DNA of 64,000 nt from Naegleria gruberi (lineage: Eukaryota). Below are positions 31,770 through 60,870 of the stretch, piece after piece. Each line of letters starts with the position of its first letter. The first letter of the stretch is position 1. The notes under the pieces were generated by a model that was given only the letters and a program-made list of their open reading frames with translations, did not search any database and had not been told where the DNA came from. The stretch is taken from the NCBI GenBank assembly GCA_000004985.1, contig GG738860.1, one strand, 5' to 3'. Made by a program: the position numbers and the translations under genes.

Positions 31770-32471
31770 TCAATTATCCACCGAGAAGATTATTTGATTG
31801 TCTCCATCGACAGCTCTCTCAATTGAAGTTGTAACTTTTGGAATAATCTTTTGAGTCATATGATTCATGCAAAAATAGGTCATTAGCAATTTCTCATTAA
31901 CAGTCGTGAGAATAACCAAAATGATTGGCTGTTTGGAATCTAAGGCTTGTCGAACAGCATGTTCACTGAAACCTGAATAACTCACAAACACGCCAACTAC
32001 ATTTTGATTGGCTGATTTTTGTAATTGATAATGACTAAGTACTCCTTCAAATTCTCGAATATATTTCACTCCTACAGCATCCTTCTCCCTTTTACATTGT
32101 CCTAGAATTGGTATTGGATGAGGATTGACTTGCTTTAGAAAGGGAAAATTCCAAAAACCTTTAAAATCAATTCCCTGATCATGAGATCGTTTTGTTACAC
32201 TCAAATTAAAATCATACTCTGATAGGTATTCAACAACTTGTGCTTCAAATCTTCTTCCCAATTCTTGTGATGATGATGATGTAATTATTTCTTCCGAATT
32301 AACTTGATCCTCAGAAAGATTAATTGGAAATATTGACGAATATTTTCGTTTATCCAATGATAATCCATCAAAAAATCGTTCCGAAATAAATTGATGACTA
32401 TTCAATGAATGATGACAATTTAATTTTCCTCTCCGAGAAACAAAGAATCTTTGAGAAAGAAGTTTTTTCAT
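31770..32471 (-). CDS. Mrr-like restriction-endonuclease-fold (PD-(D/E)xK, DUF2034/RRG7-like) protein
   Basis: 233 aa with a real ATG. It carries the motifs DQGIDFKG ... ILGQCKREKDAVGVKYIREFEGVL ... VGVFVSYSGFSEHAVRQA. These match the Mrr_cat pattern (D-G-I-D ... Q-C-K-R ... f-v-t-s-x-f-t) found in yeast RRG7-type mitochondrial proteins. Confidence 0.55.
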   Translation of the reverse strand: MKKLLSQRFFVSRRGKLNCHHSLNSHQFISERFFDGLSLDKRKYSSIFPINLSEDQVNSEEIITSSSSQELGRRFEAQVVEYLSEYDFNLSVTKRSHDQGIDFKGFWNFPFLKQVNPHPIPILGQCKREKDAVGVKYIREFEGVLSHYQLQKSANQNVVGVFVSYSGFSEHAVRQALDSKQPIILVILTTVNEKLLMTYFCMNHMTQKIIPKVTTSIERAVDGDNQIIFSVDN

Positions 32472-32651: not shown

Positions 32652-35196
32652 ATGCATCTCGTCACCCTAGCAACCTGTAACCTCGATCAGTGGTCTCTCG
32701 ATTTTACTGGGAACTTGGAAAGAATCAAGGAAAGTATTAAAATTTCAAAGGAAAAGGGAGCTCGTTATAGGTGTGGCCCAGAACTTGAAGTTTGTGGATA
32801 TGGTTGTGAAGATCACTTTCTTGAGAATGATACCTATACTCATTGTATGTTGTTGTATTAGTATTTCCATGATCCGAAGGTGGTATTAAATATTTTTGAT
32901 ATTATGATGAATTGATGATAATTTCAAAATTTCAATTTAGCAATGGAATGTTTGGCTGAATTGTTGAAGAGCGATTTAACTGATGATATTCTTGTAGATA
33001 TTGGTATGCCAATAATGCATAAGAGTGTAAGATATAATTGTAGAGTATTTCTATTGAATAGAAAAATTGTATTGATTCGTCCAAAATTGTTTTTGGCAAA
33101 CGATGGAAATTATAGAGAGACTAGATGGTTCTGGTAGGTTTTATTTCCTTCAATACGTATTGTTGACCTCGATTTACTTGTCTTTTGATTGATGGCTATT
33201 GAACTAATTGGAATATTTATCTAATATTTGATTTTAAAATTTGAAAAAGTGCTTGGACAAAGAGATTTGCTATTGAAGATTTCGTTCTCCCAGATTTTAT
33301 GAGAGAATTGACTGGTCAGAGAACCGTTCCAATTGGTGATTGTATTATTTCATTGAATGATACTGATTTGGCTGTTGAAACTTGTGAAGAATTGTTCACC
33401 CCAAACTCTCCTAATATTTATCTAGGTCTGGATGGTGTGGAAATTATTAGTAATGGATCTGGAAGTCATCATTCTCTTCGTAAATTGCATACTCGTATTG
33501 ATTTAATCAAGAATGCAACTGCTAAGAACGGCTTAGTATATCTTTATGCCAATCAACTAGGTTGTGATGGTGGAAGACTTTTATTTGATGGTTGTGCAAT
33601 GATTTGTTGTAATGGAGTGCTTCTTGCTCAAGGTTCTCAATTTTCCTTGAAACAGGTTGAAGTTGTGACGTAAGTTTTGATTGGATTTTTCAAGTATTTA
33701 AAATCAAAAGTGCCAATGTTGATTTAGATCAAGTGAGAGCATTTAGAAATAAGATTGCCAGTAGATCTGTGCAAGCTTCTGAATCTAGAGAATTCCCTAG
33801 AGTTCGTATTGATTTCACACTCAAAATTTCACACTATTCTCAAAGTTTGAAACCAACTCACCCAGTAGATGTCAAGTATTTCACAACCAATGAAGAAATT
33901 GCCCTAGGTCCAGCTTGTTACTTGTTCGATTATTTGAGAAGATCTAGCCAGGGTGGATATTTCCTTCCATTATCTGGAGGAGCTGATTCTAGTGCTACCG
34001 CTACTATTGTAAGCTTCTTTTATTTTCTACTGAATCTAAAATATTTTGTCAAATACTTATCATGTTATGCTTAATTTTTTTCTAGGTTGGATCAATGTGT
34101 CAATTGATTTATAAGGATTGTATTGAGGAAGCTAACTCATATGAGGAGGAATACAATAAGAAAATTGTCTTGAAGGAAATTAGAAGAATTTGTTCAAAGG
34201 GAGATGAGTGGATTCCATCCTCTCCAAAGGAAATTGCTAATATTATTTTCGTTACTTGTTATATGGGTACAGTGAATAGTTCAAATGAAACCAGAAACAG
34301 AGCTAAACAATTGGCTTCAGAAATTGGATCTCATCATATGGATATTGATATTGATACAGTTGTTAATTCAATGAAGGATTTATTTACCACTACTACTGGT
34401 AAAACTCCATCATTTGAGGGAAGTGCTGGAGAAAATATTGCTCTCCAGAATATTCAAGCCAGATTGAGAATGGTTGTCAGTTATTACTTTGCTCAATTAA
34501 TGAATTGGAGTAGAGATTTCAAACCAAAGAATTTACTTGTTCTAGGTTCTTCCAATGTTGATGAAGCTTTGAGAGGATATTTCACTAAATATGACTGCAG
34601 TTCTGCTGATATTAATCCTATTGGAAGTATTTCAAAGACTGACTTGAAAAAATTCCTCTTGTATGCCTCTGACAATTTGGGTTATCCTTCACTAAAGGAA
34701 GTTTTACAAGCCAAACCAACAGCTGAACTACAACCTCTCGAATCTCATCAAACAGATGAAGAAGATATGGGTTTGACCTATGATGAACTTTCTCGTTTTG
34801 GTATTTTAAGAAAGGTCTACGGTACGTGTTGTGTGAATATTAAGAATTGTTTATTAACATTTTTATTAATTGATTTATTGAATTTTTATTTAAATAGGAA
34901 ATGGACCTGTTGAATGTTTCAATAATCTAGTTTATGAATGGAGAGACAAGATGAGTATTCTTCAAATTGCTGATAAGGTTAAACGTTTCTACAGATACTA
35001 TGCAATCAATCGTCACAAAATGACCACTCTCACACCATCCTATCACTGCGAATCCTACAGTCCAGAAGACAATAGGTTTGACCTGAGACAATTTCTCTAT
35101 CCTGTTGATTTCCAATGGCAATTCAAACAAATTGATGATTTAGTAATTCAATATCAAGAGGAGGAAGAGAAGGTTAAAAAGAGTAGTAAATTGTAA
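32652..35196 (+). CDS. NADSYN1: glutamine-dependent NAD+ synthetase; 6 exons
   Basis: Approximate exons: 32652-32844, 32941-33133, 33250-33669, 33711-34008, 34086-34821 and 34898-35196. Donors are GTATGT, GTAGGT, GTAAGT, GTAAGC and GTACGT. The spliced protein aligns end to end with human NADSYN1/yeast Qns1: the nitrilase domain ([16 protein letters not shown]..., [34 protein letters not shown]), the PP-loop SGGADSS, and the C-terminus [20 protein letters not shown]. Confidence 0.9.
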
Positions 35197-35306
35197 ACTG
35201 TTTGTTTTAGTACAGAGATCTTAGTTACAATAATTCACTAATTAGCCGCTTAACTTGAATACCTAAACATTTAATTTTCGGAGTTAAAACTCCCATCTTT
35301 AAAAAA

Positions 35307-36185
35307 ATGAGTGATAACAAGAAACAACTTTCTATTGTCATCTTGTTGGTATTGATTGTGTTATTCTCAAGTGTTGGCCTAGCTCTTGCAGCTCCAATAC
35401 TAAAACCAGCAACACCATCAACCAACACACAAAATATTCGTCTCATTAGTTTTGATTTATTCGCTGCCCTGATGGATACCGGTTCCTCTATTATTGACAA
35501 CATTATCAGAGTGCTTTCTCCGTATTGTAGCAAGGATGAAGCAACACATTTAGCAGAAGAGTGGTTGAATCACTATGCAGGGACATTTTGGGAGTATAAT
35601 TCATTGGCCAGGGATCCGAATATGAAATTTGAAAATTCCAATATTTTCCAATTAATGTTACAAACTGGATTGGATTTTAATTTGAAAAGAATGAATCTTG
35701 AACATAGAATTCCACCAAATATTAAGCAAGACTTGTATTCAACTTGGTCAGAATTGAAGCCATGGCCAAATACAGGAAGAGTTCTTAATTTATTGAGGAA
35801 TATGACAGATTCGAATGGACAAAGAAGATTTAAACTTGCTGTCTTATCTAATGGAGATCGTTTGACTCTTCAAAACGCCACTCAAATCTTCAAAATTGAA
35901 AATGGTTTTGAATTTGATTATGTGATTGGTTCTAGTGATAGTGGACTTTTCAAACCAGATCCATTATTCTATGGAATGGTTGAAAAAATTTCAGGTTTGA
36001 ATAGAAATCAAATTCTTCATGTTGGAGGTTCAATGTACGATGCTAGAGGTGCTAAGGGATATGGATATATGGCTGCACTCAATTTCGGTAATCCAAACGA
36101 ATTTATCAACTTGACAGGTAATCCACAATATCAAATTGACTTTTTCTTGAAGGACCTGTCAGATTTACTTAAAATACTTCAATAA
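35307..36185 (+). CDS. L-2-haloacid dehalogenase-like HAD-II hydrolase with N-terminal signal peptide/anchor; intronless
   Basis: HAD motif I ISFDLFAALMDT (nucleophile Asp, no second Asp, as in L-DEX), motif II LSNGD, motif III FKPDP (Lys), and motif IV GGSMYDARGAKGYG. The N-terminus MSDNKKQLSIVILLVLIVLFSSVGLALA is hydrophobic. Confidence 0.7.
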   Translation: MSDNKKQLSIVILLVLIVLFSSVGLALAAPILKPATPSTNTQNIRLISFDLFAALMDTGSSIIDNIIRVLSPYCSKDEATHLAEEWLNHYAGTFWEYNSLARDPNMKFENSNIFQLMLQTGLDFNLKRMNLEHRIPPNIKQDLYSTWSELKPWPNTGRVLNLLRNMTDSNGQRRFKLAVLSNGDRLTLQNATQIFKIENGFEFDYVIGSSDSGLFKPDPLFYGMVEKISGLNRNQILHVGGSMYDARGAKGYGYMAALNFGNPNEFINLTGNPQYQIDFFLKDLSDLLKILQ

Positions 36186-36224: not shown

Positions 36225-39166
36225 TTATTCTCTCCAAAGACCCTCAAAACCCAAGTCAGTAATTTCTGTCAGAAGCCTTCTTGCATGTACAGAATTGTCA
36301 ATCAAACTTTCAAACGAAATATTATTTGAAGAGTTTCTCAATAAAAGTAATTCACCCAACTTGTTACCAATATGTTGCTCAAATGAATTTGATTCCTTCA
36401 TCCATTTTTCAACCGAATAAATATTCAATCTATCAATAACAGGATTTTTCTCATTCCTTGTTCTAGCTGATTCCTTATATGGTAGAGTAGCTAGATAGTA
36501 ACACAAAAACATATCCTTAACCTTAAAATATACTTCCTCAGACATGACTACAATGTTTGGTTTCGACCTTGAAATCATGTAATTGCAAATAGCAACAGTT
36601 TCACCAAAGCATGAAAAATTAATTCTGCTCGATGTTGAGCCAGTATATCCCAGAACAATTTTACCACTGGATATAGCAATTTTGAATGAGAAAGTTGACC
36701 CTCTGCATTCAAATTGTTTGATTACCTCAATTTTTTCTTGAAGTATTTGCTGAACTTCGTATCCAGTAACACAAGCTTTCAGTTCATGATTTTCCACTGG
36801 AAGGCTACTATCATTCCACAAGGCATACAACTTGACACCGTTAACAACACTCAAATCAAAAACAAATCCATCATTGGCGTGAACAGCTCCGGTTATTTCT
36901 GAAATGATAGAATTTAAAATTTGGCAATAGTATTCAGAGCCAACAACTGACTGAATTTCACCAACATCCTCCAAATCGACAATCATCATAGTCATTTGTT
37001 GCTTTTTCATTGGGAACATCGGTTCTGTCTCTGATGATTTCAACACTGACTTGACTACCAATTCGGGACAAAATAAGGAAAAGTAAAAGATTGATTTTCT
37101 AAACTTTTCCACAGAGCTTTCCATCTTTCTAATGTCATGAAAGACACTCGTTGTATCTACCACCAAAGTTCTGGTACCATCCAATCTCAAAATATTATTC
37201 ATAATCTTATTCAATCTCTGTAGGGGATAGGTGATGGTTTTAAGAATGATAATCAGTACAACAGTTCCTAAACTAACCAACAAGATTAGAACGATTACTG
37301 ATATCAAGCTCGTATTAATAATATACGTAAGGAAACCAGTGTGATCAGTAATAATAATGACCTTTACAAATAGGCCATGAATTAGAAAGGAGTTAGCACT
37401 GAAATAATAGTCATTTCCGTTCACTGAAATATCACCACTAAGTACTCTACTACTATCTGATTCACCATTAACGGAGGAGAAATTGGAAAAGTTATATGCT
37501 TGCATTAACTTGAAAATTTCATAGTAAATAGTCTCATTACTAAAGTCTTGTGGAAATGTCTGAATGGACTGTGGTTCATTTAAGACTTTGGAAGCCTTGT
37601 GATTAATGGAGGCTGCCAACACGTGATTAGACTTGTCTAGAATAATCACTGTATTACCGGGCTCAGTGGTTGAATTGAGAAAATCTGAAATAGATTTTGT
37701 AAGGTACTGAATACCAGCCACACCAACAAACTTTCCACTTGTTTGATCTCTCACAAGCAATGACTGAGTAATTGAGAGTCTTGACTCGGATTTGAAAATG
37801 TCACTCCACACAGTATACTGTTTGGATGGAGGAAAATCAAAACTAGTGGTATTCACACTGTCTGTAATAGCCTTAAACCAAGGTCTAACTAAAATATTGA
37901 ATGAAAAATTCTGAAACTTGTAGCTTGATGTTTGAATGACATTATCCACAATTTCATATCTCAAATGTGATGTTTTGCAGAAAGTCTTGTCTGTGAGATC
38001 AGATGGGTTTGTAATATTTGTTTGGATGCAAGGTATCAGTGTAAATCTGTCTGTACCCTTATTTGCGTAAAGAACTATCATATTATCAGCTCTTCCAAAG
38101 TAAATATAATCCAAGTGGTCCGTATATGAACCAGTCATTGACATTACCCTTGCCCATCTTGTTAAATTATAAGGATTGACTCCAAGAGCTACCAATTCCC
38201 CATGCAGAGTTTTAGTAATAAAGCCTGCTGGATTAACAAAGTAATGAACCTCATTCGATAATTTTTGATAGACCACAGAGTGTTGCAATAAGACAACTTG
38301 TCTAGCCGTCTATTTTAATATGATTGATTATCCATTATTTCAGAAAAGTATTTAGAATTAGAAAAGTTCACAAGATAAGTGAAATAACAAAGTTTCGATA
38401 ATATCCGCATCAAATAATGCAATGGTGAATATTTTTCATCAAGATAAGAATAACTACTTACGGTTTCTCCTGCACTAAATAAAACTCCAAAGGTTGTTCC
38501 TATTGATATGGCAGCCTGAAATAAAAAGACCAACACGAGCACATTCATCACTGTGAATAGTGAGGGAATAAGGGAGAAGAGTTTCTTAATAGCCTTTGCA
38601 CATTTGTGGAGGAGAGGATATGATTCTTCAGGATTATGTAATGTGCCAGTCTTATTTTCAGTTCCATGACTATCTGGTGGCTCAATTGATTGCTCCTTTG
38701 GTTGTTGATTGAGGATGATTTGATTATCATCGACCAGGCTATTCACTGGAGGTTGAGCCAAGCTTATTGTACTCCGCGAGGTAATAATGTTATTCTGTGA
38801 GGTTGCTGTCATTTCATTAAATGTTGATTCATCTATTATTCCATTGTAGTTGTTATTGTTATTATTGTTACAAAGTCTATTATTGTTAGAAGCAGTTGAA
38901 GTGGAAGAATCATGTTTTTCAACACCATGATTAACATTATGATTGAACAATGTACTGGGTGATGATATCATACTTGTATGATGATAATACTGTTGTTGAC
39001 CATTATTAGTATTTTGGGATGATGAAGATGATGACTGTATTCCTCTCATTTCGGAGAGCTCAATCGTCGACGATAGCGAGCCAGGATACACAGCATAGGA
39101 AGATGTTGTCTCAAAAGAACGCCGTATCGTGTGTTGAGAGAGGCCCTGTTGTTGACTTTGGGGCAT
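36225..39166 (-). CDS. sensor nucleotidyl (adenylyl/guanylyl) cyclase, class III, ACG-like. Topology: cytoplasmic Q/N-rich N-terminus, TM, extracellular Cache/CHASE-like sensor, TM, cyclase domain. Two exons.
   Basis: Exon 1 runs about 38462-39166, from a real ATG (MPQSQQQ...), through TM helix LIPSLFTVMNVLVLVFLFQAAISIGTTFGVLF, and ends ...SAGET before a GTAAGT donor. Exon 2 runs 36225 to about 38309. The ORF there has no ATG, and the phase-0 acceptor ...aaaatag gives TARQVVLLQHSVVYQ. The extracellular ligand-binding-like region (GKFVGVAGIQYLTKSISDF) is followed by TM2 (SLISVIVLILLVSLGTVVLIIIL) and the cyclase domain (FSCFGETVAICNYMISRSKPNIVVMSEEVYFKV). Confidence 0.7.
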
Positions 39167-54362: not shown

Positions 54363-54982
54363 TTTGTCTAAATTTAATTATGTTGTGAAGGACAAGTTTT
54401 TTGATAAACATAAATTCAAAGAGATTTATTATTGGAATCATAACTAAGGAAAGAAAGCATGTTATATGATGTTTGAAGTTTCAATTTCGATTTGATCAGA
54501 AAATAGAAAATGAGAAACCAAAACTTGCATCCATCAATTCAGGAGTTAAATATTCAATTTATAGAAGGGTGATCAACCTAATCAATATCTTCAAACAAAA
54601 CCTGAACCAACAAGATTCTGTCTTCGTTGCCTTCACTGTTCATACAGTCAAAGACTGTAGCGGGATTGTCGTCATATTCCTGGCAGGCTTCCCGTCCAAT
54701 GAAACCTAAAAGAATATCCAAAAATTAATGTTACTAAATTGTTAATAACTTAATTACTGAAAGTTTGTATTGAGTTGGTCGTGGATCGATTACAGAGCTT
54801 AATAGGTTAACCACTTTAAGTATTACTAAGTAGCATTAAGTTTTGCAAAGAAGTTCCATATTCTTTATATTCATTGCATTGATTTACCTTTGCTATTAAT
54901 CGTGACTCGTTATATTTGGAAAAGATTCGTCGTGCCAATGCTATCATGTTAATGGACACAATGGAAGATGATGAACTGAATG

Positions 54983-55100
54983 GCTACGGCCATATCACGA
55001 TGAATGCACCTCATCCCGTCCGATTTGAGAAGTTAAGCATCGTCGAGCCACATCAGTACTGAGGTTGGAGACAACTTGGGAACCTGTGGTGCTGTAGTCT
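54983..55100 (+). rRNA. 5S ribosomal RNA gene
   Basis: The sequence GGCTACGGCCATATCACGATGAATGCACCTCATCCCGTCCGATTTGAGAAGTTAAGCATCGTCGAGCCACATCAGTACTGAGGTTGGAGACAACTTGGGAACCTGTGGTGCTGTAGTCT matches the universal 5S blocks (ACGGCCATA, CATCCCGTCCGAT, GAAGTTAAGC, GTACT, GGGAA...GGTGCTGTAG). The ends pair to form helix I, and a T-run lies downstream. Confidence 0.8.
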
Positions 55101-55617: not shown

Positions 55618-55688
55618 CTCGAGTGCCGGGAATTGAACCCGGGTCGCCAGAGTGACAGTCTGGAATGCTACCACTATACCACACCCGA
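55618..55688 (-). tRNA. tRNA-Asp (anticodon GUC)
   Basis: The reverse complement is TCGGGTGTGGTATAGTGGTAGCATTCCAGACTGTCACTCTGGCGACCCGGGTTCAATTCCCGGCACTCGAG. The anticodon loop is CTGTCAC. Confidence 0.9.
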
Positions 55689-60789: not shown

Positions 60790-60870
60790 CGTTGAGGATG
60801 GGATTCGAACCCACGCGGATTACTCCACCAACTTAGCAGGCTGGCGCCTTAACCACTCGGCCACCTCAAC
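60790..60870 (-). tRNA. tRNA-Ser (anticodon GCU), class II with long variable arm
   Basis: The reverse complement is GTTGAGGTGGCCGAGTGGTTAAGGCGCCAGCCTGCTAAGTTGGTGGAGTAATCCGCGTGGGTTCGAATCCCATCCTCAACG. The Ser-type D-loop (GGCCGAGTGGTTAAGGC), anticodon loop CTGCTAA and a long variable arm are all present. Confidence 0.85.

Follow-up and report, generated by a model that had tools for sequence, protein, structure and literature searches.

The 64,000-nucleotide (nt) stretch of contig GG738860.1 analyzed herein (referred to as the window, over its whole length) contains, at positions 35307..36185 on the plus strand, a gene for a haloacid dehalogenase (HAD)-type hydrolase that the original prediction had put forward as a candidate acquisition from bacteria. 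We conclude, with a probability of roughly 0.7, that this gene encodes a secretory-pathway member of an uncharacterized, mainly eukaryotic branch of type II HAD proteins (group A), inherited vertically in a heterolobosean-like lineage rather than imported recently from a bacterium. The coding sequence specifies 292 amino acids plus a stop codon and was assigned to HAD-IA variant 2 (type II-like) from the list of open reading frames (ORFs), Pfam and NCBIfam matches, an end-to-end alignment with homologues, and an AlphaFold (AF2) model. It runs from ATG to TAA and, because this ATG is the first start after a preceding in-frame stop and both ends of the protein coincide with those of its relatives in the alignment, the gene is complete in a single exon; its description as intronless therefore stands.

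An exhaustive HMMER search of 1.84 billion representatives returned only 274 relatives with E ≤ 1e-3, of which 56 had E ≤ 1e-10. The nearest relatives are the metagenome protein P0001 (JGI; 60–62% identity) and the proteins of Willaertia magna (55%) and Acrasis kona (49%), whereas the bacterial relatives that were found are only 27–33% identical and belong to a different subgroup. We built two neighbor-joining (NJ) trees, the first from 105 sequences aligned with MAFFT auto, using Kimura distances, and the second from 76 sequences aligned with L-INS-i, using a BLOSUM-based scoredist. The window protein, P0001, and the Willaertia protein grouped with bootstrap values of 88 and 80 in the first and second tree, respectively, and a six-member clade that additionally includes Acrasis and the unlabelled sequences P0003 and P0006 received 97 in both; the values for group A as a whole were 60 and 72. 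The HAD gene is present in two heterolobosean genomes, those of Willaertia and Acrasis, and would have been inherited vertically, in common with them, among heterolobosean-like amoebae. The original prediction had named a vertically inherited eukaryotic clade spanning Amoebozoa as the result that counts against bacterial acquisition; a eukaryotic clade is essentially what the trees recover, and it is heterolobosean-like, not amoebozoan.

Recent import would mean that a bacterial L-2-haloacid dehalogenase entered the lineage, was fitted with a signal peptide, had its codons adapted, and now serves halo-acid detoxification. Bacteria possess the type II HAD fold in abundance, and rooting the NJ tree on the L-2-haloacid dehalogenase L-DEX YL places group A inside the diversity of bacterial-type sequences. 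The gene is intronless and both of its neighbors contain introns, and A. kona has been reported to harbor many bacterial genes, obtained by horizontal gene transfer (HGT), that gained signal peptides (PMC11589745). Such an import is at odds, however, with the gap between the eukaryotic (49–62%) and bacterial (27–33%) identities and with the 97% clade shared with Willaertia and Acrasis. It also finds no echo in composition: the GC content at third codon positions (GC3) of the gene is 0.284, compared with 0.280 ± 0.035 for 26 other ORFs of the window, and its codon adaptation index (CAI) is 0.717, compared with 0.699 ± 0.038. These values show no anomaly and bear out the host-like codon usage that had been remarked upon from the outset. 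Among the homologues, GC likewise tracks the host, with a GC3 of 0.18 in a 26% GC locus in Willaertia and 0.36 in a 40% GC locus in Acrasis.

The combination of secretion and a lack of introns, which had been taken as a signature of transfer, does not hold up as one. The window is very compact, with 34% GC, and long uninterrupted ATG-initiated ORFs are common in it (e.g., 1688, 1452, and 399 amino acids). About half of all genes in A. kona lack introns (PMC11589745). The HAD copies of Willaertia, Acrasis, and Rotaria are intronless as well, and that of Paratrimastix is split into at least 4 exon pieces. Moreover, the best NCBIfam match of the window protein, TIGR01428 (haloacid dehalogenase type II), reaches 70.8 bits and falls under the curated cutoff of 125.4, and the residues corresponding to T14, R41, S175, and N177 of L-DEX YL are all replaced. 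We regard recent import as largely refuted and, accordingly, as very improbable.

Membership in the type II HAD fold is itself well supported. The protein matches the Pfam models Hydrolase (PF00702; 39.3 bits, cutoff 26.4, E 1.2e-9) and HAD_2 (PF13419; 31.1 bits, cutoff 23.8, E 3e-7) and exceeds the cutoff of NCBIfam TIGR01493 (HAD-IA variant 2; 43.9 versus 39 bits), and the family profile matches L-DEX YL in the PDB over its full length (E 1e-34), well outside the range of chance similarity. The AF2 model, built from an alignment of 21 relatives (mean pLDDT 93.1, pTM 0.84), consists of a Rossmann-like core with an inserted helical cap and a separate N-terminal helix at residues 3–28. In Foldseek comparisons, the best structures were the cis-epoxysuccinate hydrolase CESH[L], L-DEX YL, DehIVa, PA0810, and the defluorinating Rha0230 and Bpro0530, all of them type II HAD, with target-normalized TM of 0.78–0.87 and 18–25% identity, and many HAD type II structures matched with probability 1.00. 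The original prediction was thus right about the fold and the neighborhood of the subfamily, although the agreement with the motifs of true L-2-haloacid dehalogenases is only partial.

All four HAD motifs that it had listed are present as described, with one nucleophilic Asp. Motif I (F49-D50-L-F-A-A-L-M-D57; 35451..35477, this and the following features being on the plus strand) supplies the nucleophile D50, with F52 at the Asp+2 position and A54 in place of L-DEX T14; F49 and D50 are invariant. It is followed by the helical cap (residues 58–164; 35478..35798), modelled as helices 58–70, 76–101, 113–128, 137–148, and 156–164. The cap contains the pair W86-L87, of which L87 (35565-35567) maps to the halide-binding R41 of L-DEX. 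Motif II (S181-N182-G-D184; 35847..35858) is invariant in the alignment and equivalent to L-DEX S118-N119, and motif III (K216-P-D-P219-L-F-Y222; 35952..35972) provides the equivalents of L-DEX K151 and Y157, with K216, P217, and Y222 invariant. The motif IV region (L237-H238-V-G240-G241-S242-M-Y244-D245-A-R-G248-A249; 36015..36053) carries D245, equivalent to D180 of L-DEX, and has H238, G241, D245, and G248 invariant; relative to L-DEX, S175 is replaced by G240, N177 by S242, and W179 by Y244. Across the 21 diverse family members aligned, D50, S181, N182, K216, Y222, and D245 are invariant. This conservation of the nucleophile and of five further catalytic residues across the family led us to reject a pseudoenzyme.

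As summarized in PMC4899344, mutagenesis of L-DEX YL (Kurihara et al. 1995) identified D10, T14, R41, S118, K151, Y157, S175, N177, and D180 as essential, mutants at these positions having far lower activity. The same paper describes R41 as the acceptor of the leaving halide and part of the halide cradle, and T14, S175, and N177 as holding the nucleophile and the hydrolytic water. Five of these nine residues are kept in the window protein (D10 as D50, S118 as S181, K151 as K216, Y157 as Y222, and D180 as D245) and four are replaced (T14 by A54, R41 by L87, S175 by G240, and N177 by S242). Because the halide-binding Arg and the three other positions are replaced across the whole group, efficient classical L-2-haloacid dehalogenase activity is unlikely. 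Given that the residues of the halide cradle and those holding the nucleophile have changed and the catalytic core is invariant, group A proteins are probably active enzymes that act on a substrate other than an L-2-halo-acid.

The protein might nevertheless be a genuine L-2-haloacid or fluoroacetate dehalogenase with an alternative halide pocket, secreted to deal with halo-acids in the environment. In its favor, the best matches in the PDB by both sequence and fold are L-2-haloacid dehalogenases and defluorinases, and the nucleophilic Asp, the Ser-Asn pair, the Lys, the Tyr, and the water-activating Asp are all retained. Yet 4 of the 9 key L-DEX YL residues are replaced, including the halide-accepting R41; Arg occupies this site in none of 43 family members; the score lies under the equivalog cutoff; and the fold also hosts other chemistry, such as that of cis-epoxysuccinate hydrolase and azetidine-2-carboxylate hydrolase. 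We therefore consider a genuine dehalogenase unlikely, and the suggestion of halo-acid detoxification made in the original prediction is correspondingly weakened.

The other function proposed there, that of a general phosphatase, also loses ground. HAD phosphotransferases need the general acid of a DxD (or DxT/E) motif, an acidic or polar residue at Asp+2. This position is F52 in the window protein, as in dehalogenases, and every relative aligned carries Phe or Tyr there; motif IV, in turn, has a single Asp with dehalogenase-type spacing. A secreted general HAD phosphatase or acid-phosphatase-like enzyme would fit the weak, sub-threshold NCBIfam similarity to phosphoglycolate phosphatase, PpaX, and nucleotidases, as well as the JGI pipeline names of some relatives (“phosphoglycolate phosphatase-like” and “FMN phosphatase YigB”). 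However, all phosphatase equivalog models score far under their cutoffs, the best being PpaX with 25.7 bits versus 218 (phosphoglycolate phosphatase, 15–20 versus 225–466), and we give this possibility almost no credence.

To place the window protein within the wider family, key residues and N-termini were tabulated for the best 150 of the 274 relatives, which fall into four types. Group A, exemplified by the window protein, has a hydrophobic N-terminal extension, never has Arg at the site of L-DEX R41, and carries Ala at the position of T14 and A or G, then G, then S, A, or G in place of S-S-N. Group B (e.g., Paenibacillus) lacks the extension, is about 227 amino acids long, retains Arg at the R41 site, and has A14 with A-G-S. 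Groups C and D also lack the extension and retain the Arg, with T14 and S-S-N (followed by W179) in group C, which includes L-DEX YL, and T14 and A-A-H in group D (e.g., PDB 3UMC). In a reduced set, a hydrophobic, signal-peptide-like N-terminal extension was present in 38 of 43 group A sequences, 1 of 18 group B sequences, and 0 of 15 outgroup sequences, and Arg at the R41 site in 0 of 43, 17 of 18, and 14 of 15, respectively. The window protein displays all three features of group A, namely the N-terminal extension, the missing Arg, and the altered S-S-N. The TIGR01428 scores separate the types as well: 262 bits for L-DEX YL, 152–154 for bacterial group B, 114 for the Piscirickettsia protein, and 69–75 for eukaryotic group A.

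Taxon labels were looked up for the 30 best representatives, with Acrasis and a EukProt transcriptome labelled separately. The labelled members among the 43 group A sequences comprise 11 eukaryotes and one bacterium, Piscirickettsia litoralis. The eukaryotes are the heteroloboseans Willaertia magna and Acrasis kona; the metamonad Paratrimastix pyriformis; the ancyromonad Nutomonas longa; Ancoracysta twista; the alveolate Chromera velia; the stramenopile Mucochytrium quahogii; the holozoans Salpingoeca macrocollata, Chromosphaera perkinsii, and Rotaria species; and the source of one EukProt transcriptome (GDKI01). When run against a word-indexed database, the family profile retrieved 5 proteins only and added no taxon labels; the same index had failed to return the 55%-identical Willaertia protein and hence gives no basis for calling the gene absent from a taxon, be it Dictyostelia, Naegleria, or another. 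The collection did not contain an exact copy of the window protein. Public names for group A are inconsistent, with “haloacid dehalogenase” used alongside the two phosphatase names mentioned above, and are probably wrong. A literature search returned nothing relevant on secreted HAD proteins in Naegleria or on the transfer of type II HAD genes into eukaryotes.

Several group A members from metagenomes (P0019, P0021, P0038, P0042, and P0046) are 390–500 amino acids long. The C-terminal sequences of P0019 and P0021 contain a Ser/Thr/Ala-rich stretch and a hydrophobic segment, and P0019 also has an Asn-rich tail, which suggests that long members of this type may be cell-surface-anchored versions of the same enzyme.

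We also scanned 185,579 bacterial and archaeal species genomes with one conserved peptide pattern, a procedure that undercounts (it missed Piscirickettsia). Eight loci with 27–30% identity were found. Five yielded a full-length ORF at the match, all of group B type, and two (L009 and L011) offered a short out-of-frame ORF only at the match position and were left untyped. The eighth (L014, 3001-3270; contig JAIYDP010000485.1 of a Verrucomicrobiaceae metagenome-assembled genome [MAG]) holds no more than the initial third of a gene of group A type, without Arg after the conserved Trp and 51% identical to P0018, beyond which the reading frame breaks. The contig, binned as bacterial, might in fact be eukaryotic, the gene then having an intron; alternatively, this might be a pseudogene.

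The N-terminus of the window protein is hydrophobic and signal-peptide-like, as had been proposed. Residues 1–28 (35307..35390) coincide with the modelled helix 3–28 and are laid out as in a cleavable signal peptide, MSDNKKQ / LSIVILLVLIVLF / SSVGLALA|AP, with the n-region MSDNKKQ, a hydrophobic core of 13 residues (L8–F20), and the c-region SSVGLALA. Judging by eye, cleavage would probably occur after A28 (A-L-A|A-P). A Pro/Thr-rich linker (residues 29–43; 35391..35435) connects the signal peptide to the catalytic core; its length varies among homologues, and model confidence is lower here (57–64 in the residue blocks 21–40). Three N-glycosylation sequons are predicted, each of them kept in P0001, Willaertia, and P0006 as well as in the window gene: N165-M-T (35799..35807), which P0003 also has; N190-A-T (35874..35882), which takes the form NAT or NAS and extends to Acrasis; and N268-L-T (36108..36116), conserved in these four. 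Since the signal peptide and the three sequons are common to the closest relatives, these eukaryotic adaptations are older than the divergence of those lineages.

These features suggest a route and a reaction for the enzyme. The signal peptide would direct the protein into the endoplasmic reticulum, where it would probably be cut after A28 and up to three of the conserved sequons could be N-glycosylated; as the protein has no further membrane segment and no KDEL- or HDEL-type C-terminal end, export or delivery to phagolysosomes would be expected to follow. By homology with L-DEX YL, DehIVa, and CESH[L], D50 would attack an electrophilic carbon of a small, probably carboxylate-bearing substrate to form an enzyme-ester intermediate, with S181, N182, and K216 positioning the substrate and the nucleophile. 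D245, together with Y222, would then activate a water molecule, so that the ester is hydrolyzed and the product freed. Mg-dependent phosphoryl transfer would not take place because the residue at Asp+2 is Phe.

Among the closest known enzymes, L-DEX YL (Pseudomonas sp. YL; PDB 1JUD/1ZRM) and DehIVa (PDB 2NO4) likewise adopt the type II HAD fold with its helical cap (TM 0.77–0.87). L-DEX YL has D10, S118, N119, K151, Y157, and D180 in common with the window protein, and the two-step Asp-ester mechanism is therefore probably common to both. The two dehalogenases differ from the window protein in that they are 21–25% identical to it and have T14, R41, S175, N177, and W179 where it has Ala, Leu, Gly, Ser, and Tyr; unlike them, the window protein is the product of a eukaryotic gene and has sequons for N-glycosylation in addition to a signal peptide and a linker. 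The top Foldseek match was CESH[L] (8wbq, E 7e-15, TM 0.81), known from Rhodococcus, Klebsiella, and Bradyrhizobium (PDB 8WBQ, 8WBK, 8WNH, and 8WMT). Both CESH[L] and L-azetidine-2-carboxylate hydrolase (PDB 3SMV) also match over the full length at the sequence level; they are cytosolic bacterial enzymes with 18–21% identity, and as the likeness considered is one of sequence and fold, no membership is claimed. Both show that the fold can open strained rings rather than remove halides, and alternative chemistry of this type is plausible for the window protein.

Among bacterial-type sequences, the nearest in the trees are the group B type II proteins of Paenibacillus (WP_074729700.1) and of Chloroflexota and Betaproteobacteria MAGs. 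They share with the window protein the derived signature of A14 and H-V-A-G-S, which replaces T14 and F-V-S-S-N, but retain Arg41, lack a signal peptide, are about 227 amino acids long, pass the TIGR01428 cutoff, and are 27–31% identical to it. The probable orthologues, by comparison, are the hypothetical protein KAL9647064.1 of Willaertia magna and the “haloacid dehalogenase” P0002 of Acrasis kona. They have the same signal peptide and altered active-site residues, share sequons with the window protein, and are likewise encoded by intronless genes; gene order is not conserved, and the Willaertia linker is longer and Asn-rich.

A bacterial contribution in the distant past is a separate question from recent import. 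Group A may go back to an ancient transfer of a group B-like bacterial type II HAD gene into a eukaryote, or to a few such transfers, followed by gain of the signal peptide, loss of the Arg, and patchy eukaryote-to-eukaryote spread, with the copy in the window still vertical in its own lineage. Because group A nests among bacterial-type sequences, a remote bacterial origin is plausible, and the whole group has possibly descended from an ancient bacterial type II HAD. The punctate spread over Discoba, Metamonada, Alveolata, Stramenopila, Holozoa, ancyromonads, and Ancoracysta is consistent with such a history, as are the departures of the group A tree from the species tree (Chromosphaera with Mucochytrium, and Rotaria with metagenome sequences) and the A14 and A-G-S signature that bacterial group B has in common with group A. 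The intronless Rotaria copy adjoins a reverse-transcriptase gene, which can be read in the same way. On the other hand, internal bootstraps are low (e.g., 11–32), so that conflict with the species tree is not a demonstrated fact; an ancestral eukaryotic gene that was lost differentially explains the same pattern; and the trees lend no support to groups A and B being sisters. We view ancient transfer as a realistic possibility, albeit not the one that we favor.

The genomic settings of two of these homologues are worth recording. In Rotaria magnacalcarata (locus L015, 1-1065 and 3001-3855), the HAD copy lies 2 kb from an RVT_1 gene, and about 10 near-identical copies occur in two Rotaria species; the setting resembles known bdelloid foreign-gene regions. 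The Piscirickettsia litoralis gene (locus L017, 4001-4903) is located in a normal bacterial neighborhood that is followed by 2.2 kb without called genes.

Several points weigh against our preferred interpretation of the gene as a vertically inherited, secretory-pathway member of a mainly eukaryotic group. The bootstrap value for group A together with group B is about 0–1 in these distance-based trees, whose deep nodes, among them the one that would join group A to a bacterial-type sister group, are without resolution; group A may thus have started in the last eukaryotic common ancestor or have come from bacteria. The trees of this one gene are what suggests the heterolobosean-like placement, in an amoeba with only a distant relationship to annotated genomes, and most group A members are metagenome sequences without a taxon label. 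Piscirickettsia litoralis has a group A gene, with a signal peptide and without the Arg, in a genuine 3.05-Mb bacterial contig. With respect to function, the chemistry of group A rests entirely on homology, a different halide pocket could still allow dehalogenation, and the 21-residue hydrophobic stretch at the N-terminus could be an uncleaved signal anchor instead of a cleavable signal peptide.

The HAD gene is closely flanked by neighbors that contain introns, as the original prediction had noted for the introns. Upstream on the same strand (32652..35196, +) lies a gene for glutamine-dependent NAD synthase (Pfam CN_hydrolase and NAD_synthase), with 6 exons and 5 short introns delineated by tblastn and by reading the junctions; its stop codon is 110 nt ahead of the HAD start codon. 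Downstream and convergent (36225..39166, −) is a gene for a dCache and adenylate/guanylate cyclase protein, recognized by Pfam matches, with at least 1 intron of about 63 nt (junction read); its stop codon is 39 nt from that of the HAD gene. Bacterial contamination was rejected on account of these short distances (110 nt and 39 nt) to eukaryotic genes that contain introns and lie on the same sequence. An antisense ORF of 102 amino acids with a TTG start (35225..35533) was treated as spurious.

In Acrasis kona, the HAD gene also lies near an adenylate/guanylate cyclase gene (L001/L002, 1153-6159), the architecture there being ANF-receptor/Peripla_BP, versus dCache in the window. Shared synteny of the HAD and cyclase genes was rejected, given the lack of tblastn similarity between the cyclases and the absence of a nearby cyclase in Willaertia. 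Cyclases are very numerous in Acrasis (PMC11589745), and we judge the recurrence of this neighborhood to be a coincidence. A single-exon gene of the window (11143-16209, −) encodes a 1688-amino-acid protein that combines NHL/teneurin-NHL repeats with teneurin-type EGF domains and a REJ domain, and an NHL/teneurin-EGF protein is also encoded 6 kb from the Willaertia HAD gene (L006, 16916-20981); the two are 34–35% identical over about 660 amino acids and are probably members of an expanded family rather than a case of synteny.

Other features of the window were recorded in passing. Just upstream of the NAD synthase gene, a single-exon ORF of 233 amino acids (31770-32471, −) contains an Mrr_cat restriction-endonuclease-like / RRG7 domain, RRG7 being a fungal mitochondrial protein family. 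The NAD synthase region 33241-35140 matches a 1.9-kb metagenome contig in ENA (ERZ929261 / ERR1078381, PRJEB11402) with 98.95% identity at the DNA level and 100% at the protein level, all other matches being at most 61% identical; the DNA identity indicates that the sampled environment contains this organism or a strain very close to it, and a literature search turned up no publication on the project. The top matches of the NAD synthase bore no dictyostelid, Naegleria, Willaertia, or Acrasis names, and as dictyostelid names were lacking among the NAD synthase and HAD matches alike, the dictyostelid origin assumed in the original prediction looks unlikely. A search of the window with Rfam detected 5S rRNA and tRNAs only: a lone 5S rRNA gene at 54982-55100 (+; 105 bits) and five tRNAs scattered among coding genes (16507-16577, −; 22080-22150, +; 22756-22828, +; 55618-55688, −; 60790-60870, −), one of which is about 500 nt from the 5S rRNA gene.

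The analysis removes a false HGT candidate and indicates that an intronless, secreted member of a bacterial-looking family is weak evidence for transfer in a compact, intron-poor protist genome. It also delimits an uncharacterized, signal-peptide-bearing branch of type II HAD proteins, represented in no fewer than six or seven supergroups of eukaryotes, from which the dehalogenase-defining Arg has been uniformly lost. More tentatively, and with the odds in our estimate against it, group A might represent hydrolases of free-living protists that form a class with a new function, outside the cell or in phagolysosomes, and that use an aspartate nucleophile on a non-halo-acid substrate, the halide-binding Arg being absent from all members, with a punctate spread (including Piscirickettsia litoralis and bdelloid rotifers) produced by repeated eukaryote-to-eukaryote and eukaryote-to-bacterium transfer. 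If so, strained-ring or ester-type metabolites of bacteria or algae would be candidate substrates. Current views are not overturned by these results, and the study of group A could yield a new secreted activity in phagotrophic protists.

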